NCBI GenBank assembly: GCA_030688315.1
Contig: JAUYIT010000027.1
Span: 33,135-97,134 of the forward strand
Source of the DNA: Candidatus Komeilibacteria bacterium
Lineage (GTDB): Bacteria; Patescibacteriota; Patescibacteriia; UBA1558; UBA10009
Direction: 5' to 3'
Length of the DNA stretch: 64,000 nt
The position numbers were made by a program, and so were the translations under genes. Position 1 is the stretch's first letter, and each line of letters starts with the position of its first letter. Positions 12,073-64,000 of this stretch are shown here, piece after piece. The notes below the pieces were generated by a model. That model searched no databases, had not been told where the DNA came from, and saw only the letters and a list, made by a program, of their open reading frames with translations.

Positions 12073-12077
12073 ATTAT

Positions 12078-12455: not shown

Positions 12456-12525
12456 GGTTTTGTAAATATTAACTTAATTTATCCACATTATAACAGAATT
12501 TTAATATTTGACAAGGGCTTTTTGG

Positions 12526-13410: not shown

Positions 13411-13422
13411 CAGCGACGTATT

Positions 13423-14817: not shown

Positions 14818-14889
14818 AAATCGCTTTTCACAAAAAAACAGAGCCAAAAAAATCTTTGACCCTGTTATTTAAATTTTGCTAATTATTTT

Positions 14890-23755: not shown

Positions 23756-23779
23756 TAAGTGAATTTAAGTTGCTGATCA

Positions 23780-44047: not shown

Positions 44048-45136
44048 ATGGACAAATATCTTTTGGCGTTAAGCCAAGTGGACGGCCTTGGGTCAGCCAC
44101 TTTAATAAAATTAATCAAGCAGTTTGGATCCGCGGAAGCCCTTTTTAAGGCTTCTGTTTTTGATTTAAAAAAATATGAGTTAAGCTCGGGCCTGATTGAT
44201 TTAATTAAACAAGCTCAAAAAATAGAAACCAATGACTTAATTAAAGAAATTGACCGGGAACAGTTGAGTGTTTGCTCATATTATGACGAATGCTATCCAA
44301 AGATGTTAAAAGAGATTTTTGACCCGCCGATTCTGTTTTATTATCGCGGCAATTTAAAGCTGGCTGATAAACCGGCCTTGGCCGTGGTGGGTTCCCGAAG
44401 AATTTCCGGTTACGCCCAGCAAATTATGCCCAAACTTTTACAGCCGGTTATTGAATCCGGCATTACCATTGTGTCCGGTTTAGCTTACGGCGTGGACGGA
44501 CTTTCGCATCAACTGGCTTTGGAATATGGAGGACAAACCATCGCGGTGGTGGGCTCGGGTTTGGGCTGGAACAGGATTTATCCTCCGGGCAACGTTAAGC
44601 TGGCCCAAAAAATCATTGCCCAAAACGGCTTGCTGATTTCGGAAAATCCGCCCTTGTTTGAAGCACTGCCTTTTACCTTTCCGCGCCGCAACCGGATAAT
44701 TTCCGGTTTAGCAAAAGCGACCTTGATTGTGGAAGCCGCTCAAAAATCCGGCGCCCTAATTACCGCCGCCTGCGCGGCCGAGCAAAACCGCGAGGTGCTG
44801 GCCGTGCCCCAAAATATTTATTCCCCAACCTCGGCCGGAGTCAACAACCTGCTTAAAAACGGCGCCAAAGCCGTGACTTCGGCCGAAGACATTTTGGAAA
44901 TTTTTAACCTTAAAGCCGATATAAATATTAATAATCCAGTGACCGAAAAAATGCTGGTAGAACTTAATAATGATGAAAAAACCGTTTATAACAGTTTAAG
45001 CGCCAGCCCTGTCCACATTGACAAAATCATAGAAAACTGTAATCTTAACACGTCTTTGGTCAATAGCTGGCTAGTTCAGCTGGAGATTAAGGGTTTAATT
45101 AAAAATCTGGGCAACCAGAATTACGTTAAAACGTGA
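44048..45136 (+). CDS. dprA: DNA processing protein DprA (Smf)
   Basis: 362 aa. N-terminal SAM-like region, Rossmann DprA core (LAVVGSRRIS...GVDG...), C-terminal wHTH. Ends with TGA. Confidence 0.9.
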   Translation: MDKYLLALSQVDGLGSATLIKLIKQFGSAEALFKASVFDLKKYELSSGLIDLIKQAQKIETNDLIKEIDREQLSVCSYYDECYPKMLKEIFDPPILFYYRGNLKLADKPALAVVGSRRISGYAQQIMPKLLQPVIESGITIVSGLAYGVDGLSHQLALEYGGQTIAVVGSGLGWNRIYPPGNVKLAQKIIAQNGLLISENPPLFEALPFTFPRRNRIISGLAKATLIVEAAQKSGALITAACAAEQNREVLAVPQNIYSPTSAGVNNLLKNGAKAVTSAEDILEIFNLKADININNPVTEKMLVELNNDEKTVYNSLSASPVHIDKIIENCNLNTSLVNSWLVQLEIKGLIKNLGNQNYVKT

Positions 45137-48709: not shown

Positions 48710-49621
48710 TCAACTTAATTTTTCAACCAACGAATTCAATTCTTCAGCCGAGTAATAATCAATGGTGACGGTACCGCCGTCGCCTTTTTGGTTGATGTTG
48801 ACTTTAGTACCTAACGCCCTTCTTAATGTTTCTTCCTTAGCTTGAATTTCCACGTCTTTACCCGTACTGCGTCGGTAACTTTTGACTGTGACCTGCCGGG
48901 CTTCGCCTTCTGCTTGCCTGACCGTAAGATTTAAAGATAAAATTTTCTTAAACAGTTTTAATCTTTCGCCATCACCCGGCTGACCCAAAATTATTTTAGC
49001 ATGTCCGGGCGAAAGCTTTTTCTCCATCAGCGCATCTTGAATTTCCTTGGGCAAACCCAACAGGCGCAAAGCGTTGGCAATGGTGGTTCTTTTTTTACCC
49101 ACCCGTTCGCCCACTTCTTCCTGGGTTAAGCTGAATTCGTCAATCAATTTTTGATAAGCCCTAGCTTCTTCAATGGGGTTTAAATCGGCGCGCTGTAAAT
49201 TTTCCACCAAAGCAATTTCCAGTTGCTCCAACTCCTCGGCCTGCCGCACTAAACACGGCACCGTGGGCAGTTCCAAAATGGTGGCCGCTCTAAAGCGCCG
49301 CTCGCCGGCAATTAATTGAAATTTGCCCGCTTCGCCCGCGAAGCGAGGCGAGTTGTTTTTGCCGGGAATGACGATTAACGGCTGTAAAATGCCGTGCTTT
49401 TTAATGGAATTAACCAGATCTTCCAACTCGTCATAGGCAAAATGCTCGCGCGGCTGATGCGGATTGGCGACAATATCGGCCAGCTTGATTTTCCTCACCC
49501 GCTCATCGGTATCTTCCAAAACCGCCGCCAACGGAGCTACCGAAGCGGTTGAATCTTGAGATAATTTATTGGGAATTAAGGAACTTAATCCCCTGCCTAA
49601 GCCTCCTTTTTGCATGGACAT
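48710..49621 (-). CDS. parB: chromosome partitioning protein ParB/Spo0J
   Basis: 303 aa. ParB box GERRFRAA, HTH, C-terminal dimerisation region. Confidence 0.9.
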   Translation of the reverse strand: MSMQKGGLGRGLSSLIPNKLSQDSTASVAPLAAVLEDTDERVRKIKLADIVANPHQPREHFAYDELEDLVNSIKKHGILQPLIVIPGKNNSPRFAGEAGKFQLIAGERRFRAATILELPTVPCLVRQAEELEQLEIALVENLQRADLNPIEEARAYQKLIDEFSLTQEEVGERVGKKRTTIANALRLLGLPKEIQDALMEKKLSPGHAKIILGQPGDGERLKLFKKILSLNLTVRQAEGEARQVTVKSYRRSTGKDVEIQAKEETLRRALGTKVNINQKGDGGTVTIDYYSAEELNSLVEKLS

Positions 49622-49625
49622 AAAA

Positions 49626-50399
49626 TTAATACTGACCGCCTGATAAAATTACTTCTCTGGCTAATCTTTCGTAAGCCTTGGCGCCTTTGCCGTACGGATC
49701 ATATTCCAAAATCGTTTGTCCGTAAGAAGGCGCTTCGGCCAAGCGCACGTTGCGCGGGATAATCGACCTAAAAATCTTTTTGGGAAAATGCTGATACAGT
49801 TCGTTAAAAACCGCTTCGGATAAACTGTTGCGGCCATCGTACATGGTCAGCACCGCGCCTAAAATATTCAAATCGGGTTTTAAGTTGTTTTGAATCAAGT
49901 CAATCGTGTACAATAACTGCGATAAACCCTCCAAAGCGTAATACTCGCACTGTACCGGAATCAGCAGTTCGCTGGAAGCCACCATGCCGTTGATGGTTAA
50001 CAGCCCCAGCGACGGCGGGTTATCAATCAAAATAAAATCGTAATCCTCCAAAATCGGGCGCAAGTTGTCGCTCAAACGGAATTCGCGTCGGTCAACGCCC
50101 ACCAGTTCCACGGCCGCCCCGGCCAGATTCAAATTGGCGGGCGCCAGATGCAGATTATCAACTCTGGTTTTTACTAACACGTCGGTCATGGTAACGGGAT
50201 CAACCATCATTACATCATAAATGCCTTTTTCAATATTTTGGTAATCCACGCCCAAACCCGAGGAAGCGTTGCCCTGGGGATCAATATCAATCAACATCAC
50301 CTTTTGTCCGTAGGCAGCCAAATAAGCGGCCAAATTGACCGCCGTGGTGGTTTTACCCACTCCGCCTTTTTGATTGATGATGGAAATTACTCGAGCCAT
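49626..50399 (-). CDS. parA: chromosome partitioning ATPase ParA/Soj
   Basis: Deviant Walker A KGGVGKTTTAVNLAAYLA. The track start at 50462 is a TTG; the ATG at 50399 (MARVISIINQKGG...) is preferred. Confidence 0.9.
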   Translation of the reverse strand: MARVISIINQKGGVGKTTTAVNLAAYLAAYGQKVMLIDIDPQGNASSGLGVDYQNIEKGIYDVMMVDPVTMTDVLVKTRVDNLHLAPANLNLAGAAVELVGVDRREFRLSDNLRPILEDYDFILIDNPPSLGLLTINGMVASSELLIPVQCEYYALEGLSQLLYTIDLIQNNLKPDLNILGAVLTMYDGRNSLSEAVFNELYQHFPKKIFRSIIPRNVRLAEAPSYGQTILEYDPYGKGAKAYERLAREVILSGGQY

Positions 50400-50547
50400 A
50401 TTGAGGTAATTATACTGAAAATTTGAGAAATTATCAATCATGCCCCACCAAACCCTTGACAAATATTATTAATTGTGATAGTTTGATATGAAATCTAAAA
50501 TAACTCTTAGATTCAACTAAACCGCACTTTCAAAAAAGGGAGGAAGT

Positions 50548-51285: not shown

Positions 51286-53349
51286 ATGTTGACTTTAGAG
51301 ACATCTATTGAAAACCTGACCAAAGTGGGAAAAACAGTGGCCTCGCGTTTACAAAACCTGGGGATTTTTAACGTTTTGGATTTGCTCAATTACTACCCCT
51401 TCCGCTATGACGATTTTTCCACTTTAAAAAAAATCAAAGATTTACAGCCGGGTGATATTGCCACGGTAAAAGGCAAAATTGAACTACTGGCCAATAAACG
51501 CTCGTTTAAGAAAAAAATGTTTATTACCGAGTGTTTTTTAAGCGACGAGACCGGCTCCATTAAAGCAACTTGGTTTGCCCAGCCCTTTATTGCCAAAGTC
51601 CTTAAAAACGGCGATGAAGTTTACTTTTCCGGCAAAGTTGACGGCGACCTGTTTAATCATTACCTCAAAAATCCGTCTTACGAAAAAGTGAGCGACCAAA
51701 CCACGCATACGGCCCGTTTGGTGCCGATCTATGCCGCCACCGAAGGCATTAGCCAAAAACAACTGCGCTTTTTAATCAAGCAGGCCTTAAGCGTTGTTGA
51801 TCTAATTGAGGATGATTTGCCGGAGCAAATTAAAACCTTCTGGCAGTTGATTGACTTAACTCGCGCCCTTAAGCAAATTCATTTTCCGGAAAACAAGGCG
51901 GAGCTGGAACAGGCCAGAACCCGGCTCAAGTTTAACGAACTACTGGGCTGGCATTTACAGAACATATTATTAAAAAAAGATGTACAAGAAAGTTTAGCCG
52001 CGCCCATTCAATTTAACGAAGAGCAGACCAAAAAGTTGGTCAATAATTTGAGCTTCCAGCTTACCGATGCTCAACGGAAGAGCGCCTGGCAAATTTTAAT
52101 TGACATGGCTAAAACCAAACCCATGAACCGCTTGCTGGAAGGCGATGTGGGCGCCGGTAAAACCGTGGTGGCCGCTTTGGCCATTGCCAATGCCGGGCTG
52201 AATGGGTTTCAGTCCGCCCTTTTGGCGCCCACGGAAATTCTGGCTTTCCAGCATTTTTTGGCTTTTAAGGAAATCTTAGGTCCGCTCAACCTCAATGTGG
52301 CCTTGTTAACCAGAAGTAAGGGCCAGGTTTTTAATACGGCCGATAACGCCCCCACAACATTAAGCAAAGCCAAACTGCTTAAAACCATAGCCAACGGTGA
52401 AATACAATTGGTCATTGGCACGCAGGCCTTATTGGAAGATAAAGTTATTTTTAACAAGTTAGGTTTGGCGGTAATTGACGAACAACATCGTTTTGGCGTG
52501 GAGCAACGGCAAAAGCTAAGGGAAAAATCGGGCGACCCCGCTACCACTCCTCACTTTTTATCCATGACGGCCACGCCTATCCCCCGCACGCTGGCGCTGA
52601 CCTGGTACGGCGATTTGGATATTTCCGTTTTGGATGAGCTGCCGCCCGACCGGAAAAAACCGATTACTCAATTATTCAGTCCGAACAAAAGAAATCAGGC
52701 CTATGAATTTATTTTGGAAAAGATTAAGGAAGGACGACAGGCCTTTATCATCTGTCCGCTAATTGAAGAATCGGATAAATTGGGCGTTAAGTCGGCCACC
52801 GAAGAATATCAAAAACTGAAGGAAGAAATTTTTCCGCAACTAAACATCGGGTTGTTGCACGGCAAACTTAAGCCCAAGGAAAAAGACCGAATAATGGCCG
52901 AGTTCGCGGGTGGCCAAACTGATATTTTAGTGGCCACTTCGGTGGTGGAAGTTGGCGTTAACGTGCCCAACGCCAGCGTGATGATTATTGAATCTGCGGA
53001 ACGGTTCGGCCTGGCCCAGCTACATCAGTTTAGAGGCCGAGTCAACCGCTCCAGACATCAGGCGTACTGCCTTTTGTTTACCGCCAGCCAGGCCGAAAAG
53101 TCTTTAAATCGCCTTAACACCCTGGTTAATTGCTATGACGGTTTTAAACTGGCCGAAGAGGATTTAAAACAAAGGGGGGCGGGCAATTTGCTCGGCCTCC
53201 AGCAATCAGGAGTTTGGAATTTTAAACTGGCTTCATTTGCCGATACCAACCTCCTGGAGCAAACCAAAAAAGCCGCCGACCTTATTGCCAGCGACTATCC
53301 TGAATTTATGCAAAGGTTGAAAGACACAACCGTCATCCATCCCGAATAA
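51286..53349 (+). CDS. recG: ATP-dependent DNA helicase RecG
   Basis: 687 aa. Wedge/OB N-terminus, helicase motifs I GDVGAGKT, II DEQHRFG, VI QLHQFRGRVNR. Confidence 0.93.
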   Translation: MLTLETSIENLTKVGKTVASRLQNLGIFNVLDLLNYYPFRYDDFSTLKKIKDLQPGDIATVKGKIELLANKRSFKKKMFITECFLSDETGSIKATWFAQPFIAKVLKNGDEVYFSGKVDGDLFNHYLKNPSYEKVSDQTTHTARLVPIYAATEGISQKQLRFLIKQALSVVDLIEDDLPEQIKTFWQLIDLTRALKQIHFPENKAELEQARTRLKFNELLGWHLQNILLKKDVQESLAAPIQFNEEQTKKLVNNLSFQLTDAQRKSAWQILIDMAKTKPMNRLLEGDVGAGKTVVAALAIANAGLNGFQSALLAPTEILAFQHFLAFKEILGPLNLNVALLTRSKGQVFNTADNAPTTLSKAKLLKTIANGEIQLVIGTQALLEDKVIFNKLGLAVIDEQHRFGVEQRQKLREKSGDPATTPHFLSMTATPIPRTLALTWYGDLDISVLDELPPDRKKPITQLFSPNKRNQAYEFILEKIKEGRQAFIICPLIEESDKLGVKSATEEYQKLKEEIFPQLNIGLLHGKLKPKEKDRIMAEFAGGQTDILVATSVVEVGVNVPNASVMIIESAERFGLAQLHQFRGRVNRSRHQAYCLLFTASQAEKSLNRLNTLVNCYDGFKLAEEDLKQRGAGNLLGLQQSGVWNFKLASFADTNLLEQTKKAADLIASDYPEFMQRLKDTTVIHPE

Positions 53350-53481: not shown

Positions 53482-54819
53482 TTAATTCAACAGTCCGATA
53501 ATTTCCTTAACCTCTTTAACCTTAACCAACCCGGCCGAGGCGCCTTCAAAATAAGGCAGAATAATTTTGTTAAAACCCAATTTAACCGACTCCTTAACTC
53601 TCTCTTTGGTTTTGGCAACCGACCTCACTTCTCCGGCCAAACCCACTTCGCCAAAAATCACCGTTTTAGCCGGCACCACTCTATCCTGATAAGCGGATAT
53701 AATACTGGCACACACGGCCAAATCCAAAGCCGGTTCTTTTAAAGTTAAGCCACCGGCGATATTTAAATAAATATCAAAATTACTTAAATTAATCGCCGCT
53801 CTTTTACTTAATACCGTGGCCAGCATTTCCAAACGCCTTTGATCAAAACCCGAAGCGGAACGTTTAGGATAATTATTTGAAGTTTTGGCCACCAAGGCCT
53901 GCACTTCCACCAAAAACACCTGCGAACCCTCGGCTACGGCGCAAATAACCGAGCCGGGCTGATGATGACTTTCCGCTAAAAATATTTTTGAAGGGTTAAC
54001 CACGGCTTTTAAACCCTCTTTAACCATTTCCAAAATCGCCACTTCATCGGTGGGGCCAAAACGGTTTTTGGAAGCGCGCAACAAGCGATATTGTTTGTAT
54101 TTATCGCCTTCCAAATACAGCACTGTATCCACCAAATGCTCCATGGTTTTGGGCCCGGCCAAATCTCCTTCTTTGGTTACGTGGCCGATAATAATGATGG
54201 CGGTTTTGCCGCTCTTAGCTAAAGTCAGCAACTTGGCGGTACAGGCCTTAATTTGATTTAAATTGCCGACCGCGTTGGTAATTTCTTCGGTATAAACGGT
54301 TTGAATGGAATCAATCACGGCCAGTTTTGGCTGTTCACTTTCAATGGTGGCGATAATCGTTTCCAAATGATCTTCATTTAAAAACCTTAATCCGCCTTGG
54401 CCTTTGCCTAAACGTGACAAACGACCAGATACCTGATCAGTTGATTCTTCAGCGGAAACATACAACACTCCGTCTTTAAAACTATTGACGATTTGCAAAG
54501 CCAAAGTTGATTTGCCCACGCCCGGATCGCCGCCCAGCAAAATCAAACTACCCGGAGTAATTCCGCCCCCCAGCACTTTATCAAATTCAGCAAAACCCGT
54601 AGGCAATTTTTTCGCCCGCGACCCGCTTATGGAAAGATGGGTTAATTCCACGACGTCTTTTGATGCCTTGGAACTTGGACCTTGAACCTTTTTTGTTGAT
54701 TGACTCTTGTTAGTCGTTTCTTCGGTCAGCGTTCCCCACGCCCCGCACTCCAAACACCGCCCCGCCCATTTAATGGCCTGTGCGTCACACTTGGAACAGG
54801 TAAAGATTGTGTTACTCAT
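53482..54819 (-). CDS. radA: DNA repair protein RadA/Sms
   Basis: 445 aa. C4 zinc finger CSKC...CLEC, RecA-like Walker A GGDPGVGKSTL, KNRFG motif, Lon-protease-like C-domain. Confidence 0.93.
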   Translation of the reverse strand: MSNTIFTCSKCDAQAIKWAGRCLECGAWGTLTEETTNKSQSTKKVQGPSSKASKDVVELTHLSISGSRAKKLPTGFAEFDKVLGGGITPGSLILLGGDPGVGKSTLALQIVNSFKDGVLYVSAEESTDQVSGRLSRLGKGQGGLRFLNEDHLETIIATIESEQPKLAVIDSIQTVYTEEITNAVGNLNQIKACTAKLLTLAKSGKTAIIIIGHVTKEGDLAGPKTMEHLVDTVLYLEGDKYKQYRLLRASKNRFGPTDEVAILEMVKEGLKAVVNPSKIFLAESHHQPGSVICAVAEGSQVFLVEVQALVAKTSNNYPKRSASGFDQRRLEMLATVLSKRAAINLSNFDIYLNIAGGLTLKEPALDLAVCASIISAYQDRVVPAKTVIFGEVGLAGEVRSVAKTKERVKESVKLGFNKIILPYFEGASAGLVKVKEVKEIIGLLN

Positions 54820-55147
54820 TTTCTATTTCTTGCAAAATTACAGCTAAATGATACTCAAGATCCTTCTGGTTGATATTTTCCGTATTACCCTTAAAATAAA
54901 TAGTGATGGGAATCAAGGTATTCCTGAATTCCCAAAGAAAAACAATAACCCGAAATGACTTGCTCTTGCCCCTAGGTAAATCTGAACTTTTCAGACGCAG
55001 TTTATATAACTTATGACCCAAGGGTGTAACTAAATCTTTATTAAAATCCTTTAACTGCTTAATTAAATCATCAGTTAAGCCCGGGTATTTCTTTAAAAGA
55101 GATTTTAGTTGTCTTAAAAAATGAACTGCTAAATAAATCTCATACAT
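54812..55147 (-). CDS. RelE/ParE-superfamily toxin-like protein (type II TA toxin)
   Basis: 111 aa, basic. Its start overlaps the radA stop region and it sits 2 nt downstream of an RHH protein gene. The pattern KLYKLRLKSSDLPRGKSKSFRVIVF..IYFKG is consistent with the RelE/HigB fold. Confidence 0.5.
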   Translation of the reverse strand: MYEIYLAVHFLRQLKSLLKKYPGLTDDLIKQLKDFNKDLVTPLGHKLYKLRLKSSDLPRGKSKSFRVIVFLWEFRNTLIPITIYFKGNTENINQKDLEYHLAVILQEIENE

Positions 55148-55151
55148 AAAC

Positions 55152-55415
55152 TTACAAGTCCGCTAATTTAGATAGTTGCTTTTTAATGGAAGGAATGTTC
55201 CTCTTTTTATATTTCTTTTCCAAGGCGCTCTCCAGAGCTCCACTTAGATAAGCGAATCGAGGGTTGCCTTCCAAAGGCATCTTACCTTCTTCATCAATGT
55301 ATTTTATTACGGCAAAACGAAAAAATTCCGCCTTACTCGGAAAGCCCTTAACTTTTATCGTCTGGCTGATCTTTTGCTCTAAGACCCGGGGAATGGAGAA
55401 ATTAATTATAGGCAT
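55152..55415 (-). CDS. ribbon-helix-helix (CopG/RHH) antitoxin-like protein
   Basis: 87 aa. N-terminal beta-strand IINFSIPRVLEQKI followed by two helices. Encoded immediately upstream of the toxin-like gene. Confidence 0.5.
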   Translation of the reverse strand: MPIINFSIPRVLEQKISQTIKVKGFPSKAEFFRFAVIKYIDEEGKMPLEGNPRFAYLSGALESALEKKYKKRNIPSIKKQLSKLADL

Positions 55416-55426
55416 AAGTATATTGA

Positions 55427-55906
55427 TTACATATTTAATACATATATAATATCAAATTGCCAAAAACTTGTCAAATGACCACTTAACAGGTACTTGTTAA
55501 ACATTCTGGTGCGTTTAGTAGCTAGCTCAGGATCCTCAATTTCTTTAACCCTCTCATAACCTACTTTAGCCAGCCAACGTTTGAATGGCTCAGCTTTAGG
55601 GGATGGGATTGATTGGATTATGCGAAAAATACCTTCTGTGTTAGCGCAGTCGGTTTCGTACTTTTTACCGTCAGAGGACTCTAATTTCAGTTGTTTACAA
55701 ATTGTAGACAACTGAACTCCATCCTCATCTTTGACCCGGGCTTTCATTGCGCTCCAATAAACACTGGGCTTAGCGCTATCCGTCAGCACTTCTACCACAT
55801 CCACAACCGAAAACCACCATTCGTTGTTGTGAATAACTTTACGGACTTCTTTGCCTTTAAAAACAACGATTTTAATTGTTTCTGGGTGATTATTTGATTC
55901 CTGCAT
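55427..55906 (-). CDS. Bro-N domain protein (phage/mobile-element-associated DNA-binding domain)
   Basis: IKIVVFKGKEVRKVIHNNEWWFSVVDVVEVLTDSAKPSVYW matches the Bro-N/AntA N-terminal pattern. The track start at 55957 is a TTG; the ATG at 55906 is preferred. Confidence 0.6.
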   Translation of the reverse strand: MQESNNHPETIKIVVFKGKEVRKVIHNNEWWFSVVDVVEVLTDSAKPSVYWSAMKARVKDEDGVQLSTICKQLKLESSDGKKYETDCANTEGIFRIIQSIPSPKAEPFKRWLAKVGYERVKEIEDPELATKRTRMFNKYLLSGHLTSFWQFDIIYVLNM

Positions 55907-56154
55907 ATGTTTTATATTATTACTTATTAGCTTAAAAAGCAAACAAAACAGGGTCAAAAACCATTAGCCCCAAAGAGGCGGTAATTGACCCTGTTTTAAT
56001 TATTGTTATCTTAATTGAACCTCAAAAATCTGTCAAGTTGATAAGGTGGCGGCTGTTTTAAGCAACCAAAAAATCCTTTACCCCCGAAGCTCAAAGAGCG
56101 GAGGGGGCAACTGCCTAAAAACGATTGAGGGTTAAAATAATTTTGATTTACTCT

Positions 56155-56826
56155 TTACTGATCTCGGCAAGAAGCAGTACTAATATGATAGTGGTTACTA
56201 TTCTCCAATGCATGATAGCCTACATATCTTGCACACTGACTGATAGCTCTTTCAAAATATTGAAAATTTTCTTCATCACCAAAATCAACCGCGTATGACT
56301 TACCATCATTGACATCTCCTCCGTAATGGCATGAGTTCCAAAGATGGTCGCAATTTGCCGGCTTGTTGTTCTGAACATGACAGGCGCCCAAATTACCAAT
56401 ATAATCGGAATCGCTGATTGAGGAAATTCTGCCAATTACTACCGGCGGACTCCCTTCACGGCTAAGTTGTCTTTCAAATTCATTAAATTTTGGCCTTAAA
56501 CAATTTAAAAGATTTATTAATCCCTGGGAAGCATCAGATAGTTGCGCCTGAATACCGTCATCAAAGTGCCAACCGCCCGTAACACCCGCCTCATCAGCTC
56601 CTCCAAAATTTCTCTCCATACATGTTTTAGGCCCAATTGGAGGGTTAGCTACATAACAAATTTTATTACCCGGCAACCAGGTTACATTGTTGTTTGGGTT
56701 AGGAGAAGGACAAATACCTGATTTGCTAAAATTACCCATAACATCTTTGGTACAGATCATATCTTTAAATTTTGAACCTATATCTCCTGTAAAGGAGCTT
56801 AAGGCCAATCCCCCGACTTTCGCCAC
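56155..56826 (-). CDS. Cys-rich protein with possible LAS-type (M15/M23-like) zinc peptidoglycan-hydrolase motifs; in frame with the upstream 327-aa ORF across a single TAA
   Basis: 223 aa with 12 Cys. H-x6-D in CHYGGDVND and HxH in NHYHIS. GTG start at 56826 (first ATG at 56760). No signal peptide of its own. A strong hairpin terminator (aacagggtcaa...ttgaccctgtt) lies 3' of it. Confidence 0.4.
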   Translation of the reverse strand: MAKVGGLALSSFTGDIGSKFKDMICTKDVMGNFSKSGICPSPNPNNNVTWLPGNKICYVANPPIGPKTCMERNFGGADEAGVTGGWHFDDGIQAQLSDASQGLINLLNCLRPKFNEFERQLSREGSPPVVIGRISSISDSDYIGNLGACHVQNNKPANCDHLWNSCHYGGDVNDGKSYAVDFGDEENFQYFERAISQCARYVGYHALENSNHYHISTASCRDQ

Positions 56827-56931
56827 ACCATTATAATCAAAGCAATCATCTATCGTGGAACAATCAACATCAATTAACGCGCAAGTATTACCAATAATCT
56901 CATGTTTAAAGCTTGTTGAAAAAGTGCATAT

Positions 56932-57915
56932 TTACTTACGATTCGTCTCTTGAAAAGTTGGCGTGAAGAGATTGCAACCATTTTCGTTTTTAGGTATGCC
57001 GTACTTGTCCATAGTAGTATTATCAACCTGATCACACTTCAAGCAATTTGCTTCTCCTAAACGTTGGTTAAAATAACAAACCGCGCCATCTAGATATTCC
57101 GAGCAACCCCTGCCTATACATTCTTGGTTTGTACCCTTAACCTTGGCTTTTTGACCGCAACTAAGATTTTGTCCAATATCATCCTTACCGTCAACTGTAA
57201 CAGCTGCATCGGGTTCACAAAAATCTCCCACCTGCGACTTATTAATTTTACTGACGTCCAGCGGCGAAAATTCAACCAATTTAGGGTTAATCGTATTCAA
57301 AATAAGCCACGAGCCAAGGACTAAAATTAAACCGATGATGGCGCCGATGATAATTTCCTTGGCTTTCGTGATTTTTCCAGAATCGCCGCTGGAAAAAAGC
57401 CATAACAATCCGCCAATAGCGATCATAATAACCGCCACAATACCGGCCACGCCCACTAAAAATTTGTATAAAGCACTAATATAATTTCCAAGCAAACTAT
57501 TATCAACGTTACTGGTTTTAGGAAAACCTGGTAATGAAATATTAGGAGTAAACTTCAAATCCTCCCTAGGAATGGCTCTTTCTCCAACTGCCGAAGGTGC
57601 TGGGCATAAGTCAGAATTATAACAATAATCTAAAGAGCATGTTACACCGCCAACTAATCCTGTTTGACTAGGATCAAGATTAGGATTAGCTATAACCACG
57701 CCTTGACTTTCACATGTTGCTTGTGTTATATACCTGGTACAAGATCTTACTTCTCTATCATCTCCAGCTGACCTATTTATTTCTCTACAAATACAACACT
57801 TACCGCTATCTTCGGATGGACCGATGAAACCCTGGGCTAAAGCATTTTGCGGAACAACAATAAAACCAAGACCTAAAAGGTAAAATGATAATAATACTAT
57901 TTTAACTGATTTCAT
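56932..57915 (-). CDS. secreted Cys-rich protein with internal VirB2/TrbC-like pilin hairpin module (third copy)
   Basis: 327 aa. Signal peptide, Cys-rich N-domain (CCICREINRS...), then LYKFLVGVAGIVAVIMIAIGGLLWLFSSGDSGKITKAKEIIIGAIIGLILVLGSWLIL (two TM plus a basic loop, compare GGEEDKIADAKK in the giant protein), then a Cys-rich C-domain. Confidence 0.7.
   Translation of the reverse strand: MKSVKIVLLSFYLLGLGFIVVPQNALAQGFIGPSEDSGKCCICREINRSAGDDREVRSCTRYITQATCESQGVVIANPNLDPSQTGLVGGVTCSLDYCYNSDLCPAPSAVGERAIPREDLKFTPNISLPGFPKTSNVDNSLLGNYISALYKFLVGVAGIVAVIMIAIGGLLWLFSSGDSGKITKAKEIIIGAIIGLILVLGSWLILNTINPKLVEFSPLDVSKINKSQVGDFCEPDAAVTVDGKDDIGQNLSCGQKAKVKGTNQECIGRGCSEYLDGAVCYFNQRLGEANCLKCDQVDNTTMDKYGIPKNENGCNLFTPTFQETNRK
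57277..57498 (-). other. VirB2/TrbC-like pilin hairpin module inside the 327-aa protein
   Basis: See 33712..34086. Shared G(L)LW(L/M)xSGG(E/D)xxKIxxAKxxIxxAxIGL signature. Confidence 0.55.
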
Positions 57916-57934
57916 AAGACGACTTAATTATATC

Positions 57935-58615
57935 TTACTTTAGCGCCTTTTCCAACTGCTCTAGCGTTATTTCCTGATTAAACCTCTGGTTATTAACAAA
58001 CAAATAAGGCGTGCCGTCTAAACGGAGGCCCTGGCCTTCCTGAAAATCTTCCATAATTAAAGGCAGAGTTTGCTGATTATCATAACACTGGCTGAATTTA
58101 GCCAGATCCAATTTTAAAGCCGAGGCGACTTGGGTATATAAATTTGAACCCAACTGGTCCTGATTGGCGTAAAGGTAATCATGGAATTCCCAGAATTTAT
58201 TTTGAACTTGGGCGCAACGGGCGGCAATGGCCGCGCGCTGGCTTTGCTGATAATCGGGATTGGGATAATCTTTCCAAATCAATAACACATCGGCGGGATG
58301 ATTTTGTAACAGTTGGCCCAAAACTTGTTCCGCGTCCGCGCAATGCGGACACTGAAAATCGCTATAAATAACCAGCTGGTTTTTGGCGGTTGTTTGGCCT
58401 AAAGCCGGGTCGGTGGCTCTTAACACCGGCGCGGTTAACAAGGGTTGAGTTACTTGCTGACTGACATTATTTAACGACTCCAAATATTCTTGATCATCTT
58501 TTAAAACTTTGGCGCCATAATAGTAACGAGTTACAATCAAAATCGTAAAAACAAGCAACAGCCCCAAGGCGAGGTAAACTAAGCGGTTGACTTGTTTGGG
58601 GTTAAGGTCAGACAT
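57935..58615 (-). CDS. membrane-anchored DsbA-family thiol:disulfide oxidoreductase (second copy, inside the T4SS-like operon)
   Basis: 226 aa. TM anchor, active site FQCPHC, DsbA-like C-terminal cis-Pro region (DGTPYLFVNNQ). Confidence 0.8.
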   Translation of the reverse strand: MSDLNPKQVNRLVYLALGLLLVFTILIVTRYYYGAKVLKDDQEYLESLNNVSQQVTQPLLTAPVLRATDPALGQTTAKNQLVIYSDFQCPHCADAEQVLGQLLQNHPADVLLIWKDYPNPDYQQSQRAAIAARCAQVQNKFWEFHDYLYANQDQLGSNLYTQVASALKLDLAKFSQCYDNQQTLPLIMEDFQEGQGLRLDGTPYLFVNNQRFNQEITLEQLEKALK

Positions 58616-58617
58616 GA

Positions 58618-59865
58618 TTACAATTTAATGCTGTAAACCTTCCCGTTATTGGCATCTTGGAAAAACAGGGTTTTTTCATCCGGCGATAAGGAAACATTGC
58701 TAGCGGAATAAGCATTTAAATCGCCCACCGGAGTAGCTAACACCGAAATCTGGCCGGTTTGCAAATCCACTTTGTAAAAAGCATCGGCGGAATTTTTGGC
58801 CAATTGCGGATACAAACCGCTGCCGCTGGGCAAATAATCGGGCACCCCACAATAAGCAGTAATGCCATCGGCGGCCAGAGCGCATTTTTCCGGCCAGGTG
58901 GCTAAGCCCAAATCCAAATTGCCCGCGCCCGCGTTATCGCCGCCGGCCTGGACCGATTGCAGGATTGGTTTAAAATCATTATCGGTGCGGTAAACACTGT
59001 ACAATAGACGATCGCCTTTAGCCGACCATTTGCCTTTAAAGCCGTGACCGTTAACCGTAAGCGATTGAAAATTTTCCTGATTGCGACCGATAAAAATGAC
59101 TTCTTGAGCGTTGTTGCCCGTGTTTTTGCGGTACATAGCCACCATTTGCCCGTTGGGGGACCAGTTGATATCCACATCGGCGGACTTGGCGCCCAACCGT
59201 TCCACAAACTGAATATTGGAACCGTCGGGGTTGGCCGTAACGATCCAGTTATTTTCTTCCTGTGGACCGATAGCCGCGGCCGCCAATTGTCCGGCATCAG
59301 TGGAAAAAGAGAATTTTTCCAGTTCTTTAGGCAAAGCGTATTGCTGTTTTTTAACAAAATCATAAACGATATTGGAACCGTCGGGATATTCCAGCACGGC
59401 GCTGTTGCCTTTAGGCGCCCAGGTAATGTTTTGCACGGCGTAAAAACGCTGATCTGTCAGCTGGCTAACGGATCCGTCCGCGTTGATTTTGTAAAAACGG
59501 CCTTCGGCGGAATTAAAATAATTAACTCCCCCGTTTTGATTGACTGTAGGCGCAACCACGCGCGACGAACTAAAATTGTTAACCAAAGTATAGCTGCCAT
59601 TGGCGGTTTCGGAAACTGTCACGTCTTCCGGGATCTGACTGATAAAAGGCAATCCGGCGTTGACGTTTAAACCACCGACGCGATTAACATTACCTTCCGG
59701 CAATTCCGGCAATTGGCCGGCCGGAGTATTAACGTTAATCAAATTGCCCGGAGGCAAAGCCGCTTGCGGCGGTTTAAAGAAAAAATAATACATTAAATAG
59801 CCAAGACCAATCACCGCGCCCGCGAACAGAATGATGATGATTGTTTTTTTTATTCGTTCATTCAT
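58618..59865 (-). CDS. TM-anchored beta-propeller protein (TolB/PD40-like repeats)
   Basis: 415 aa. N-terminal TM helix, then repeated SP(D/N)G..(I/V)AF-type blades (NWSPNGQMVAMY, SLSPDEKTLFF, TANPDGSNIQF). Confidence 0.6.
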   Translation of the reverse strand: MNERIKKTIIIILFAGAVIGLGYLMYYFFFKPPQAALPPGNLINVNTPAGQLPELPEGNVNRVGGLNVNAGLPFISQIPEDVTVSETANGSYTLVNNFSSSRVVAPTVNQNGGVNYFNSAEGRFYKINADGSVSQLTDQRFYAVQNITWAPKGNSAVLEYPDGSNIVYDFVKKQQYALPKELEKFSFSTDAGQLAAAAIGPQEENNWIVTANPDGSNIQFVERLGAKSADVDINWSPNGQMVAMYRKNTGNNAQEVIFIGRNQENFQSLTVNGHGFKGKWSAKGDRLLYSVYRTDNDFKPILQSVQAGGDNAGAGNLDLGLATWPEKCALAADGITAYCGVPDYLPSGSGLYPQLAKNSADAFYKVDLQTGQISVLATPVGDLNAYSASNVSLSPDEKTLFFQDANNGKVYSIKL

Positions 59866-59879
59866 ATTAATATGGATAA

Positions 59880-60698
59880 TTATTTACCCAAAAATTTTAC
59901 TTTGCCTAATTCCGCCTCCATTTCATCGGCCGCTGACTTTAAACTGCCGATATGCTTATCGTTTTTAATCTTAATCAACAGAACCATAAAAATATAAGTC
60001 GGAAACATAGTAACGAACGGAAGAAACTCCACTAAAATCGCCAAAATGGCCTTACCAGCGAATTTTTTTATTAACCATGTTTTAAACCAAACTCCCTGAA
60101 AGCTGACGACCATTAAAAGGGCCATGGTAATAAAAATATTAACAATTGAACTGCTGATGCCTGTCGGCTCCAGCATATCCCAAAAATCCTTGATAAACGC
60201 CAACAGTATGGCTAGTAAAAAAGAACTGAATCTGCCGGAAGCAATTCCCTGCCTTAAACTTTGACCCAATAAAAATCCTTCTTTGATGGCACCAAGCGGG
60301 GTTTTAATGCTGGCCGCGTTTTTAAAACGCTCGTAATCATGCTTAAACTGTTTATCGCCTAATTCGTTTAAAGATCGGCTTTCCACGATGTTTTGGGCCT
60401 GATTAATAAAACTTTTCGCCCTTTGCCGGTTTGATGGTTGATTGTTTGAGGATTGAGCGGATTGATCTTGAGGCGTTGGTTGATTTTCCTCCTGATCCTG
60501 TTGATTATTGTCAGTCGGTTGGTTAGGAGTCGGCCCCGCTTGAGCGGGCAACGGACTTTGATTCGTCCCTTGTCCGGCAGGTAAAGAAGAAGATTGTTTT
60601 TTATGTCTGCCGCTCTGCCGGTCCTTTTTTTTGACAACGGTCAACAATCTGGCCAACTCTTGTTCTACCCCCTGGTCTAATTTACGGGCATCAGCCAT
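59880..60698 (-). CDS. hypothetical polytopic membrane protein with Q/N/P-rich disordered N-terminus (T4SS-like operon member)
   Basis: 272 aa. Residues ~35-100 are low complexity, and 3-4 TM helices lie in the C-terminal half. Confidence 0.5.
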   Translation of the reverse strand: MADARKLDQGVEQELARLLTVVKKKDRQSGRHKKQSSSLPAGQGTNQSPLPAQAGPTPNQPTDNNQQDQEENQPTPQDQSAQSSNNQPSNRQRAKSFINQAQNIVESRSLNELGDKQFKHDYERFKNAASIKTPLGAIKEGFLLGQSLRQGIASGRFSSFLLAILLAFIKDFWDMLEPTGISSSIVNIFITMALLMVVSFQGVWFKTWLIKKFAGKAILAILVEFLPFVTMFPTYIFMVLLIKIKNDKHIGSLKSAADEMEAELGKVKFLGK

Positions 60699-60716
60699 AC
60701 TATTTAATCAACTTTA

Positions 60717-61292
60717 TTATTCCTGCCAAACGGCGCTATCCACCAACCAGCTGTCGTCGGATTTGACCAATGATAATTCAAGGTCCTGATAATAAACAAA
60801 ATCCTCGGCGCCGTCCTTGCGTTCGCTTCGTTGCAAACTGACCGTAACTTGGGCCGTGCCGGCCCCTTCATCCAAATTAGTGATTTCCGTTTTTAAGGCC
60901 TTGGAAGAAACGCCGTAAAATGTTTGACCGGATGCTGACGTTAACATTTCCGCCTTCAACTGATTGATGTCTAATTGCATGTTGGCGGTAGCCATTAGTT
61001 TGACTTCTTCCAGATTTAAAAACTGGCTGTCGGTAGAAAAACTGGCGTAGCGTTCGGCAAAATTACGGGCCGTGTTGACCGCGGTTTGTTCAGCCGGCTT
61101 AAGAGTAACAATCGACACAATTGGCACCGCGCCTTTGTTGACTTCGGGTACGGCCGTATTAACGTTCTGGTTGGTTTTTGCCTCTGGCTGATTAGGAGTA
61201 AAAAACGACTGATCGGTCAGCAACAAAGCAATGGCCAGCCCGGCCAGAACTAAGACGATAATGGCGATGATGATTATTTTTTTTCTGTTCAT
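60717..61292 (-). CDS. N-terminally TM-anchored extracytoplasmic protein (size and topology compatible with a VirB8-like scaffold; unproven)
   Basis: 191 aa. One TM (IIIIAIIVLVLAGLAIALLL) then a soluble domain. Confidence 0.4.
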   Translation of the reverse strand: MNRKKIIIIAIIVLVLAGLAIALLLTDQSFFTPNQPEAKTNQNVNTAVPEVNKGAVPIVSIVTLKPAEQTAVNTARNFAERYASFSTDSQFLNLEEVKLMATANMQLDINQLKAEMLTSASGQTFYGVSSKALKTEITNLDEGAGTAQVTVSLQRSERKDGAEDFVYYQDLELSLVKSDDSWLVDSAVWQE

Positions 61293-61302
61293 ATAATTTT
61301 AA

Positions 61303-63153
61303 TTATTGCTGGCCGCTCATGGCCGTATCAAATTCCTTTTTAGCCGCTTCAATTTCCAACAGCTGTTTGGGATCGGAAGTAATAATCTGGTCTTCGGTGT
61401 AACTGGCTTTGACTAAAATAGCCACGTGCTTATCGCCCGCGAAAAAGATGCCTTCGCCCACGTTGCCTTCCAACAGTAAATACTTTTCGCCCTCCGTAAG
61501 CATAAAGGTATCCTTAATCATATTAATGCCGGCCGGCGACTGCTTTAACAACAGCTGGAGCGACGAGTTGGTCACGATGGCCTTGCCATAAGGCGAACTC
61601 AAAAAATCCGTCACATCTTGGGTAATGGTGGTTACGCCCAAATAATACTTGCGGCAGCGCTTGACCAAGGCGAAAATGAATTTGGCGCTATCTTCCCTTT
61701 GCATCAGCCACCAGGCCTCATCAATCACTAAAATTCTCTTTTTTAGCTCGCTGCGCACAATTGTCCAGATGTAATTAACAATAGAGTAAATAGCAATGGG
61801 CTTAAGCTCGTCTTCCAAATCGCGCACCGAAAAACAGATCATTTGATTTTTAACGTCAATGTTGGTGGGGCTGTTAAACAAACCGGCAAAAGTTCCGGTG
61901 GTATATTTTTTTAAGCGCATCACCAAAGATTCGCCGCCGGCCATGCCGCCCAGCACTTCTTCAAAATCCCTCATCAGCGGGGCTTCCACGTTGCTTAAAT
62001 CGCTTTCGGGCGTAATATCCTTTTTTGCGTAAGTTTCCAGCAAGGCCCGGTCCACCAAAGAGTCCTCTTCATGGGAAAGCTCCCCGAGCATTAAGCGCAC
62101 CAAACCCTTTAAAGTAATAACCGCGCTGCGGATAATATCGGCCGGTTTACTATCTTCACCGATGCCCTTGGGCAAATCAAACGGATTGAGCTTGGTTTCG
62201 GAATTAAGGGAAATATTGATGTACGCTCCGCCCACCGCGTCGGCCAGATATTTGTATTCGTTTTCCGGATCAATAATCATCACTTCAATACCCATCATCA
62301 TACTGCGTAAAACCTCCAGCTTAATGGCGTAGCTTTTGCCCGCGCCGGAAGTGGCAAATACTACCGAGTTGGGGTTTTGCAAACTAAAACGGTCAAAAAT
62401 TATCAAACTGTTATTGTGGCGGTTAATGCCGTATAAAATGCCGTCATTACCCGTTAGTTCGGAAGAAATAAAAGGGAACGAAGAAGCCACGGGCGAAGAA
62501 TTCATGTTAAACGAAATCTGCAATTCATCATTAGCCAAGGGCAAACAGGAATTAAAGGCCTGCTCCGACTGGTACAAAGCGCGTTTGGAATAAACAAGTT
62601 TGGAGCCAAACAAGGATTCGATTTTTTCCACCATCAATTCCAGTTTTTCTTTGGTATCGGCGTAAATGGTAACATACAAAGCGAACTGAAAAAACTTTTC
62701 CGTGCCCTGAGTTAAATCGTCGCGCAAAGTTTCAATATCCCTTAAGGCCGTTTCACGCAACGGGTCGCGAGGCGCGCCTTTTTCGGCGTCGGCCATCAGC
62801 TGGGCCTGCACCGCGCCGACCTTGTTCTTAAGTTGTTTTAAAATAATTTCCGTTTTAACTGGGTAAAAAAACATGGCCACATCCAAGGGCGAGCTGTAAT
62901 TGATAATGGGCGAAAACCAGCCCACGTTGATGTAACGCGGATAGTTAATGGCAAACAAAGTGGTTAAAAATTTGCCGTTAAGCTCTACCGACCGCGGATC
63001 CACTTTCATGCTGGCCGGGGCGATAATATCCTTAACCGAAGTTACGCCCTCGCGGTAAATTTTTTCCGCCTCCAACAACTCCCGGGCTTCGGTTGAACTA
63101 ACCTTGGCCTGGCTCTTTTTTATTTCTTGTTCCGGTTTTATTTTAAATGCCAT
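61303..63153 (-). CDS. VirB4/TrbE/CagE-family type IV secretion ATPase
   Basis: 616 aa. Walker A FATSGAGKSYAIK, Walker B RILVIDEAWWLM, N-terminal NYPRY(I)NVGWF motif typical of Gram-positive-type VirB4 (PrgJ/TraE/TcpF-like). Confidence 0.88.
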   Translation of the reverse strand: MAFKIKPEQEIKKSQAKVSSTEARELLEAEKIYREGVTSVKDIIAPASMKVDPRSVELNGKFLTTLFAINYPRYINVGWFSPIINYSSPLDVAMFFYPVKTEIILKQLKNKVGAVQAQLMADAEKGAPRDPLRETALRDIETLRDDLTQGTEKFFQFALYVTIYADTKEKLELMVEKIESLFGSKLVYSKRALYQSEQAFNSCLPLANDELQISFNMNSSPVASSFPFISSELTGNDGILYGINRHNNSLIIFDRFSLQNPNSVVFATSGAGKSYAIKLEVLRSMMMGIEVMIIDPENEYKYLADAVGGAYINISLNSETKLNPFDLPKGIGEDSKPADIIRSAVITLKGLVRLMLGELSHEEDSLVDRALLETYAKKDITPESDLSNVEAPLMRDFEEVLGGMAGGESLVMRLKKYTTGTFAGLFNSPTNIDVKNQMICFSVRDLEDELKPIAIYSIVNYIWTIVRSELKKRILVIDEAWWLMQREDSAKFIFALVKRCRKYYLGVTTITQDVTDFLSSPYGKAIVTNSSLQLLLKQSPAGINMIKDTFMLTEGEKYLLLEGNVGEGIFFAGDKHVAILVKASYTEDQIITSDPKQLLEIEAAKKEFDTAMSGQQ

Positions 63154-63162
63154 GTTGATTTG

Positions 63163-63843
63163 TTATTCAACTCTTAATTTATTTATATCCGCCAGTTTTT
63201 GCGCGTCCGCCACTTCGGGATTATAGGTATTGTAAAACAATTCAATCAAACTCTGCGTATCCAAGGGCACCGATTTTAGGCCAATGGACGAAAGGCCGGA
63301 AATCACAAAATCCACCCTTTTCATTAATTCATCGCGGGAACGGTTAAATTTTTTCTGACTCAAGTTAATGGCCCGAGCCGGCGAAATTGCGTCCATGGTC
63401 CGCTCCCAAAACTTCTTTTTTTCATGGTTGGCGCCGCTGTAAGGCACGGCCACGTAAAACTTTTTGGTCATAATTTCGCCCAAATCCAGCAGGTCGCGCA
63501 AAAAGGCGCGGTAATCGGCAATCTGCAAACGCAACAATTCATTGGTCTGTTCTTTTTCCAAATTTTCCAGCTTGGTTAAATAGCCGTCAATATTAAGATT
63601 GCGGGATTGAATCACGATTTGCAAAGGGAATGATAAAGAATTTAAAAAACTGACGTACGCTTGAATAATAGCGTTTTGCTCGTCTTCGCCTTTAAGCGCG
63701 AAGTTAATGGAAGAAACCAGCAGAACCGCGCGCGTGCCGCCATCGCGCAACACCACCGTGTCGTCTTTGATTTCGGCAATGTCCAAATATCGTTGCGTTG
63801 ATTGGCTTGGTTTTGAACCGGCTAATTTGTTTTTTTCAGGCAT
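63163..63843 (-). CDS. VirB4 N-terminal-domain-like protein, in frame with the VirB4 ATPase across a single TAA
   Basis: The segment VLRDGGTRAVLLVSSINFALKGEDEQNAIIQAYVSFLNSLSFPLQIVIQSRN resembles the VirB4/TraC N-terminal region. The track start at 63906 is a TTG and would overlap the upstream gene; the ATG at 63843 (preceded by TATAAT) is preferred. Confidence 0.5.
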   Translation of the reverse strand: MPEKNKLAGSKPSQSTQRYLDIAEIKDDTVVLRDGGTRAVLLVSSINFALKGEDEQNAIIQAYVSFLNSLSFPLQIVIQSRNLNIDGYLTKLENLEKEQTNELLRLQIADYRAFLRDLLDLGEIMTKKFYVAVPYSGANHEKKKFWERTMDAISPARAINLSQKKFNRSRDELMKRVDFVISGLSSIGLKSVPLDTQSLIELFYNTYNPEVADAQKLADINKLRVE

Positions 63844-63844
63844 A

Positions 63845-64000
63845 TTATAATTTAAATGAAACGTCTTTTTCCCGTTCTTCGCCGTGATAAACCCCGCCGG
63901 TATCAATCAACAGGGTCAGCTCGGCCAAATGGGAACGGTTAATGGGACGATGGGTTATGGGAGCAACTGTTGCCGGAGCACCCTGATCGGCATTATCTTT
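63845..64000 (-). CDS. 3' end of an upstream minus-strand gene running off the window (unknown product)
   Basis: The frame is open from the window edge (KDNADQGAPATVAPITHRPINRSHLAELTLLIDTGGVYHGEEREKDVSFKL*) with a TAA at 63845-63847, one nt before the ATG of the next gene. Confidence 0.35.
   Translation of the reverse strand, partial: KDNADQGAPATVAPITHRPINRSHLAELTLLIDTGGVYHGEEREKDVSFKL

Follow-up and report, generated by a model that had tools for sequence, protein, structure and literature searches.

A chromosomal Patescibacteria-type type IV secretion locus and its pilin module in a Candidatus Komeilibacteria genome

A type IV secretion system (T4SS) locus was analysed at the end of a 64,000-nt stretch of DNA (contig JAUYIT010000027.1; the whole stretch is hereafter the window), which comes from a metagenome-assembled genome (MAG) of Candidatus Komeilibacteria (class ABY1), as judged by the NCBI names of identical proteins. 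The locus is a Patescibacteria-type T4SS derived from the Gram-positive MPF-FATA systems, of a kind already described in papers from 2023 to 2025, and its best reading, in which we place high confidence, is that of a chromosomal, non-conjugative T4SS characteristic of the Patescibacteria (candidate phyla radiation, CPR) in a class-ABY1 arrangement. The features found that define such membership were a FATA-related VirB4, adjacent TrsD and PrgI, a PF18895 pilin, the lack of a relaxase and of a nearby type IV coupling protein (T4CP), and a Patescibacterium as host. The core module is made up of a 418-aa protein, PrgI/VirB3, TrsD, a 616-aa VirB4 ATPase and a VirB8-like protein, all parts of a Gram-positive-type inner-membrane translocon; the pilin module downstream comprises a small polytopic membrane protein, a PD40 propeller and a DsbA, both anchored in the membrane, and a VirB2-like pilin. 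Nothing in the locus is categorically new; the analysis sharpens the class-ABY1 parts list, and these parts are concrete handles for the groups now able to manipulate Saccharibacteria genetically.

Extent of the locus and its core module

All the genes of the locus are co-directional on the minus strand, with seven of them in the window, one being interrupted by a stop codon. A previous reading made from the letters of the window (the sequence-only reading) had listed eight minus-strand open reading frames (ORFs), all of which were present at the positions given, although the last two proved to be one gene. The spacing of 2-19 nt that it reported was correct for the first six junctions (9, 10, 18, 14, 2 and 19 nt), whereas the seventh measures 105 nt and is conserved coding sequence, not intergenic. 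A 12.4-kb contig, L001, was retrieved by an exact-match look-up of the VirB4 protein; it reproduces window positions 55817-64000 with 0 mismatches and extends 4,221 bp further upstream, where the order going upstream from TrsD is a PrgI/VirB3-like protein, the 418-aa protein, a PPDK_N protein and a methyltransferase. Since the PrgI-like and 418-aa genes start beyond position 64000, the operon begins outside the window, whose edge indeed cuts it as had been supposed.

The 418-aa protein is conserved, cytoplasmic and free of transmembrane (TM) helices, and its gene ends 3 nt before that of PrgI; it had no family match, and its PDB sequence-profile search, like that of TrsD, gave chance matches only. 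The window holds the 3' end of the PrgI/VirB3-like gene (63845-64000, the last ~51 codons), the full product of which has 150 aa, two TM helices and a match to PF12666 PrgI (6.8e-10). It is followed by TrsD and VirB4, in that order, with gaps of 1 and 9 nt. TrsD (63163-63843) is a 226-aa counterpart of the N-terminal part of VirB4. Its earlier description as a VirB4-N-like ORF is upheld by the matches to NCBIfam TrsD (3.8e-6) and to positions 97-228 of the 894 in VirB4_plasma (3.8e-10), a model of the full-length mycoplasma VirB4, and its precomputed annotation is PF26593 TraC-like. The start of this gene had been placed at TTG 63906; ATG 63843 is likelier, being an invariant start in 31 homologues, and the stretch upstream of it is the PrgI-like 3' end.

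The 616-aa VirB4-family ATPase (61303-63153), which had also been recognised beforehand, matched P-loop_TraG (4e-28), the NCBIfam CD1110 family (3.7e-105, above the curated cutoff, over model positions 176-733 of 752) and the Thermoanaerobacter VirB4 in PDB entry 4AG5 (2e-43). The nearest plasmid VirB4s were those of Firmicutes and Actinobacteria, with 29-35% identity, the relatedness being judged from profile matches and sequence identity. TrsD maps to VirB4 model positions ~26-228 and the ATPase to positions from 176 onward, indicating that together they represent one split VirB4. That TrsD might be a duplicate of an N-domain within the 616-aa protein was rejected, as hhalign of the two family profiles showed no similarity between their N-terminal regions (probability 0.2%).

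The 191-aa protein (60717-61292) had been described as TM-anchored, and its N-terminal TM helix agrees with this; its predicted structure further identifies it as a structural VirB8. In a model built from 37 homologues (pLDDT 82, above 90 in the domain), the N-terminal TM helix of this bitopic protein is followed by a disordered linker and then by a predicted C-terminal NTF2-like domain, in which three helices pack on a four-stranded sheet and which can be superposed on VirB8 structures. Only the fold reveals the relationship, as no sequence-profile match to VirB8, PrgL or TraE was obtained in Pfam or NCBIfam.

Related loci and genomic context

A scan of one genome per species yielded more than 580 VirB4 relatives, and the best 80 loci (69-89% VirB4 identity) were compared together with our own, making 81. 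All 80 came from Patescibacteria-type MAGs, many of them Falkowbacteria or Kerfeldbacteria and others labelled 'Patescibacteria group'; the closest relative, L002, has a VirB4 89% identical to ours. TrsD was present in 80/81 loci, the PrgI-like gene in 78/81, directly upstream of TrsD, the VirB8-like gene in 73-77/81 and the 418-aa family in 72/81, often duplicated, and the core order was kept in 72-80/81. DsbA was found in 33/81 loci, and the propeller and the pilin in 26/81 each. These counts point to a near-universal core (~90%) and a facultative pilin module (about one third of the loci). RadA was encoded in 50/81 loci and RecG in 41/81; in the window, radA (53482-54819) and recG (51286-53349) lie beside the locus. 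In 39 relatives (L004 and L037, for example), a protein of 900-1500 aa with 6-10 predicted TM helices, lacking any Pfam or NCBIfam match, is encoded ahead of the 418-aa gene and might represent an extended VirB6; its gene is often preceded by that of a Cys-rich protein of 600-1100 aa.

The reading of the locus as non-conjugative has to be set against one in which the locus belongs to an integrative conjugative element (ICE) with relaxase, coupling protein and oriT outside the examined sequence. The VirB4 lineage does derive from monoderm conjugation systems, and in a survey of the Patescibacteria many T4CP homologues were encoded far from virB4 (Quinonero-Coronel et al. 2025, PMC12102498). In the same survey, by contrast, relaxases occurred in only 103 genomes. 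The sequence-only reading had seen no relaxase or VirD4, which holds for the window ORFs of at least 280 aa, where a Pfam scan of the 64 kb detected no relaxase, T4CP or integrase, and also for the 4.2 kb (4,221 bp) of L001 upstream of position 64000, where neither a relaxase nor a VirD4/T4CP was found; the scanned ORFs thus cover 68 kb free of these three functions. What the sequence-only reading had named as its refutation, a relaxase, VirD4 and oriT immediately upstream, failed to appear, although no search aimed at oriT was made in the absence of a relaxase family to guide it. The sampled large or P-loop neighbour ORFs of the 80 loci included no T4CP or relaxase either and were housekeeping genes. 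Window ORFs of this size include EF-G, FtsZ/FtsA, tRNA synthetases, ParAB, RelA/SpoT, ComEC, DprA, RadA and RecG, and the flanks of the locus are housekeeping genes whose order is conserved across 80 species (PPDK_N, radA, recG, parAB, tRNA synthetases). Moreover, G+C content and skew run on into the flanks without a break, and the 69-89% identity of VirB4 across species resembles vertical inheritance. The ICE reading was rejected on this genomic context and is very improbable. The earlier proposal of a T4SS-like operon resembling CPR/episymbiont clusters more than a classical conjugative element is borne out by TrsD, PrgI, VirB4, the PF18895 pilin, the lack of a relaxase and the adjacent radA and recG.

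Several points weigh against the reading of the locus as a non-conjugative Patescibacteria-type T4SS. A T4CP may be encoded in another part of the genome. The locus yielded no VirB6 homologue, the 272-aa membrane protein having 3-4 TM helices and no hidden Markov model (HMM) relation, and the 900-1500-aa polytopic protein is absent from the window and also from L002. The roles given to the propeller, the 272-aa protein and the 418-aa protein follow from gene position alone. Finally, the role of these systems has been called 'completely unknown' (PMC11665869).

GC skew was negative across the whole window and never changed sign, so that no origin or terminus lies inside it. ParB and ParA are encoded at 48710-50462, ~6 kb from the T4SS locus.

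The pilin module and its interrupted gene

The first gene of the pilin module (59880-60698) encodes a 272-aa membrane protein of an uncharacterised family, with a Q/N/P-rich N-terminal half and 3-4 C-terminal TM helices according to a TM scan. Searching exhaustively with HMMER for the membrane domain recovered 99 relatives, and a word-indexed search only the query itself; no Pfam, NCBIfam or PDB relation was detected for the protein and 40 relatives. Its assignment as VirB6 was unsupported, given 3-4 TM helices instead of at least five and no match to the VirB6, TrbL or PrgH profiles. The second gene (58618-59865) encodes a TM-anchored protein of 415 aa that had been described as a TolB-like propeller. 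The propeller part of that description stands, PD40 repeats being detected in 13/22 family members (best 4e-9), whereas TolB itself does not: TIGR02800 scored 21 bits (1e-4) against a cutoff of 343, PD40 repeats alone are common to both, and no tol or pal genes lie near the 415-aa gene. A PDB sequence-profile search with the propeller gave chance matches only.

The third product (57935-58615) is a membrane-anchored, DsbA-like thiol-disulfide oxidoreductase of 226 aa, as had been recognised, with matches to Thioredoxin_4 (6.4e-29) and DSBA (2.5e-16), a CxxC motif (CPHC) and a predicted N-terminal TM anchor that would leave it extracytoplasmic. Pilins of the related loci have a median of 18 cysteines, compared with 0 in PrgI, TrsD, VirB8-like and 418-aa families, making them the obvious clients of the co-encoded DsbA. 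The four genes of the module do not always accompany virB4. Locus L086 groups next to clpB, away from virB4, the genes of a 272-aa-family member, of a propeller homologue with 34% identity, of a DsbA and of a pilin; this pilin (11910-13670, 586 aa) combines PF18895 with an SLT lytic transglycosylase domain (3.5e-6) and a GDSL lipase domain (3.5e-10). In locus L087, a 272-aa-family gene lies beside a T4SS locus.

The last gene of the operon (56155-57915, 586 codons) encodes, in this order, a signal peptide, a Cys-rich ectodomain, a VirB2-like pilin hairpin, a Cys-rich linker and a LAS/Hedgehog-like domain, with 16+3+10 cysteines. From the signal peptide and the two-TM hairpin, both Cys-rich domains are predicted to lie outside the membrane. 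The two-helix module (residues 144-209, 57289-57486) matched PF18895 T4SS_pilin (5e-11), the Mbov_0395 pilin-like family (2.5e-5) and TrbC/VirB2 (1.4e-3), and it lies in the operon of virB4, 3.4 kb downstream of that gene; the Cys-rich protein with a pilin module anticipated in the 327-aa ORF is thus confirmed. This gene is interrupted by an in-frame TAA (56932-56934), where L002 has Gln. The ORFs on either side, 56932-57915 (327 aa) and 56155-56826 (223 aa; 201 aa in the NCBI annotation), are in the same frame and separated by that single TAA, and the 35 codons after it, which had been taken for a 105-nt spacer, are conserved with L002 (TCALIDVDC). As L002 carries an uninterrupted ORF of 585 aa, with which the translation was compared, the two ORFs represent one gene, not two. 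The 223-aa product, with its ten cysteines, lacks both a signal peptide and a TM helix, and hence would not reach the compartment where its folding is possible; as assembled, only a 327-aa pilin without its peptidase head would be exported. The Cys-rich, LAS-peptidase-like ORF of the sequence-only reading thus holds a probable LAS-like domain that is part of the pilin gene and that is, as assembled, cut off by the TAA and deprived of an export signal.

It is quite possible, though in our judgement not the likelier case, that the TAA arose in assembly or consensus calling, or represents a minority allele, and that the intact 585-aa pilin-peptidase fusion is really made. The stop was seen in a single sample, the 258 downstream codons contain no further stop or frameshift, every invariant Cys, His and Asp is retained, and the conservation of the 35 post-stop codons with L002 points in the same direction. 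On the other hand, the same base is found in two assemblies (the NCBI MAG, annotated with the separate 201-aa protein, and a Logan contig), a short-read consensus rarely holds single-base errors, and the head is naturally absent from many ABY1 pilins, which makes its loss plausible. A read-through of the TAA at low frequency by design, which would give many head-less pilins and few head-bearing ones (at the filament tip, for example), would also account for the intact and conserved downstream frame; it is scarcely credible, however, considering that UAA is the least leaky stop codon, that the closest relative has a sense codon at the same position, and that no recoding signal was seen, none having been looked for.

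The LAS-like domain (56158-56574) carries five of the cysteines and probably adopts the LAS (Hedgehog/DD-peptidase) fold. In the alignment of its homologues, H167, D181 and H214 were invariant and H212 was at least 90% conserved, a pattern that appears to correspond to Zn ligands (H, D and H, plus the catalytic H of HxH). In a profile alignment with the Sonic hedgehog N-domain (ShhN), SCHYGG...AVDFG fell on SLHYEGRAVDIT and HxHVS on HIHCSV, so that the pattern is in register with LHYEG..AVD and HIH of ShhN, the known Zn ligands of the Hedgehog fold. The model of the domain was moderately confident (pLDDT 68), and Foldseek of the model against the PDB, Pfam and PDB sequence profiles were all without a significant match. 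More than 200 homologues were found, 110 of the 120 listed carrying a signal peptide and a pilin-type hydrophobic hairpin N-terminally, and many are annotated PF18895. The domain resembles the LAS metallopeptidases (VanX, VanY, MepA, the Streptomyces DD-peptidase and phage M15 endolysins) and the Hedgehog N-domain in having H...D and HxH in Zn-ligand register. It differs from them in the lack of HMM-level similarity, in a 7-residue insertion between the His and Asp ligands, in five extra invariant cysteines and in its normal fusion to a T4SS pilin module. For 27 of the LAS-like domains Pfam gave nothing but weak Cytochrom_C550 matches, which raised the question of haem binding. Haem binding was rejected: the matches are caused by a CxSCH motif that many homologues have at the putative metal site (WNSCH in the window copy) and that mimics the CxxCH of haem c. 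The general lack of respiratory chains in CPR bacteria (PMC10633639) also counts against haem.

The operon had been said to end at a strong hairpin. Such a hairpin is real (~55944-55998, minus strand; -30.4 kcal/mol, z -6.8, with 0/200 shuffles folding as well) and has a U-rich tail; it lies, however, 160 nt past the stop codon, between a promoter-like site (56008-56036) upstream of it and a Bro-N gene that it directly precedes, and after a weaker terminator-like hairpin with a U-run, 45 nt past the stop codon (56078-56110, minus strand; -18.9 kcal/mol, z -1.3). Rfam showed no RNA family at the hairpin, its matches in the window being limited to three tRNAs. The Bro-N gene (likely ATG 55906), an 87-aa ORF and a RelE-like 111-aa ORF (54812-55957, minus strand) occupy 1.25 kb that separate the pilin gene from radA. 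In L002 the Bro-N gene is absent and the gap between the pilin gene and radA is only 86 nt, suggesting that this stretch is a small inserted cassette with the strong hairpin at its edge. The hairpin may be the operon terminator, part of the insert, or both.

Relation to known systems and possible function

The closest known systems are the T4SSs of the Patescibacteria, which a 2025 review treats as the 'most exciting newcomers' (PMC12857230). Southlakia epibionticum has an unusual T4SS (SEML1_0006-0019) with pilins and no recognisable coupling protein or relaxase, essential for epibiotic growth (Wang et al. 2023, PMC10633639). The survey mentioned above defined a VirB4 clade related to MPF-FATA, with TrsD, PrgI/VirB3 and PF18895 pilins near virB4, few VirB8 homologues (mostly in ABY1), VirB1 mostly absent, and ABY1 loci beside comF, recG and radA (PMC12102498). 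Our locus shares with these systems a VirB4 adjoined by TrsD and PrgI/VirB3, the monoderm-type make-up with a PF18895 pilin, the lack of a relaxase and of an adjacent T4CP, a chromosomal location and, as in ABY1, the proximity of recG and radA. It differs in having a single operon-linked pilin instead of an array of 2-11, this pilin being long, with Cys-rich ectodomains and a LAS-like head; in its DsbA, PD40 propeller and 272-aa family, the survey making no mention of DsbA, thioredoxin, propeller or disulfide; in the near-universal presence of the VirB8-like gene in these ABY1 loci, compared with few in the survey; and in that no VirB6 homologue was found. Relative to the published accounts, the near-universal VirB8-fold gene of ABY1 loci, the separable module of 272-aa protein, propeller, DsbA and pilin, the hydrolase domains fused to pilins and the stop-codon split in this genome appear new.

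With the MPF-FATA conjugative T4SSs of Firmicutes (pGO1 trs, pCF10 prg and the CD1110-type CTn2), the locus has in common a CD1110-family VirB4, a separate TrsD (as in pGO1), a PrgI-type VirB3, a PrgL-like VirB8 fold and the absence of an outer-membrane core complex. Unlike them, it has no relaxase, T4CP, PrgH/VirB6, PrgK/TrsG-type hydrolase or PrgB-type adhesin, and it does have a VirB2-like pilin, which Gram-positive systems lack. The transfer genes of mycoplasma ICEs also count among the closest known systems. The best NCBIfam match of TrsD was the N-terminal region of the Mbov_0397-type VirB4 and the pilin module matched the Mbov_0395 pilin-like family, all the scores being far below the equivalog cutoffs; the mycoplasma proteins are encoded by mobile ICEs, which have DNA-processing functions of their own. 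A neighbour family of the related loci (c12) gave a weak NCBIfam match to PamR; the 'Pam pilus' of a 2026 preprint is a different, Ig-like donor-strand pilus, and the link was discarded as irrelevant.

From this parts list a mechanism may be proposed. PrgI, TrsD with VirB4, and VirB8 would scaffold and energise a Gram-positive-type membrane channel. The pilin would enter the membrane by Sec, guided by its signal peptide, with both ends facing outward as in VirB2; DsbA would oxidise the ~29 cysteines of its ectodomains, and the propeller and the 272-aa protein might help its insertion or polymerisation. It could then form a surface filament or anchor presenting the peptidase-like head at the wall, where the head might cut the peptide cross-links of peptidoglycan, either in the cell's own wall, in the VirB1-like role that the sequence-only reading had suggested, or in that of the host. 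The peptidoglycan-hydrolase function that is mostly missing in surveys may in this way be fused to pilins. The whole machine would serve not conjugation but the epibiotic interaction with a host, into or out of whose cell it would move macromolecules. In the only species tested, epibiotic growth required a T4SS of this kind; effector export and nucleic-acid import are its candidate functions.

The rival for this function, though not for the identity of the system, is a machine that imports host nucleic acid, like H. pylori ComB or archaeal Ced, and passes single-stranded DNA or RNA on to the recombination and competence proteins encoded nearby. Import has been proposed for these systems (PMC12102498; PMC11665869, a 2024 perspective that mentions ComB-like uptake), and host RNA uptake with T4SS-like tubes has been described (bioRxiv 10.64898/2026.06.21.733656). 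It would fit the radA and recG genes that follow the locus in 50/81 and 41/81 loci, the comF gene that comes next after VirB8 in 13 relatives, and the presence in the window of comEC (13423-14847, with an MBL-fold gene at 12526-13410) and dprA (44048-45136); this neighbourhood, ABY1-specific as to radA, recG and comF, somewhat favours a DNA-related role. As in ComB, a non-conjugating T4SS, there is no VirD4 (T4CP) or relaxase at the locus, and competence and recombination genes lie near it; the analogy would nonetheless be functional only, ComB being a diderm VirB2-B10 system. VirB4 also gave weak matches to CedB (2e-13) and CedD, which are generic to the P-loop and far below the cutoffs. Against import, the radA/recG adjacency is confined to ABY1, other classes having the locus near dnaA, and none of the operon's products was identified as DNA-binding; Southlakia can do without comEC but not without the T4SS, which argues against a simple link. 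We consider the import reading somewhat unlikely.

ComEC, DprA, RadA and RecG within one 64-kb stretch represent, as an observation apart, a concentration of transformation and recombination genes.

Other proteins with the pilin module are encoded in the window. Two adjacent genes (24715-34086 and 34144-35922, minus strand) encode proteins of 3,123 and 592 aa, both with a signal peptide, an N-terminal PF18895 module (1.6e-7 and 7e-8) and then Big_5 Ig-like domains, the larger also with a weak CBM_4_9 match. Judging by these domain matches, VirB2-like modules would serve as anchors of giant adhesin-like proteins too, here at 20-30 kb from the T4SS operon. More tentatively, the PF18895 module may act, beyond being a filament subunit, as a general-purpose carrier for setting disulfide-stabilised 'warheads' on the cell surface or the pilus (the LAS peptidase, with more than 100 fusions; SLT plus GDSL in L086; the 3,123-aa Ig-like adhesin), served by a dedicated four-gene biogenesis module (272-aa protein, PD40 propeller, DsbA and pilin) able to travel apart from VirB4. 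If so, the missing VirB1 of CPR T4SSs would be built into the pilins and possibly aimed at the host wall.

Just downstream of the 3,123-aa gene (22469-24658, minus strand), a 292-aa protein carries bacterial TSP3 (calcium-binding) repeats (4.6e-19), and a 428-aa protein gave a faint EF-hand match. In some relatives, genes of ~120 aa belonging to the 23S-rRNA-intervening-sequence/bAvd-like four-helix family (PF05635, 2.9e-34) are interleaved among the T4SS genes; none was present in the window, six copies were found in L021 (7357-17883), and others in L004, L009, L010, L014 and L076.

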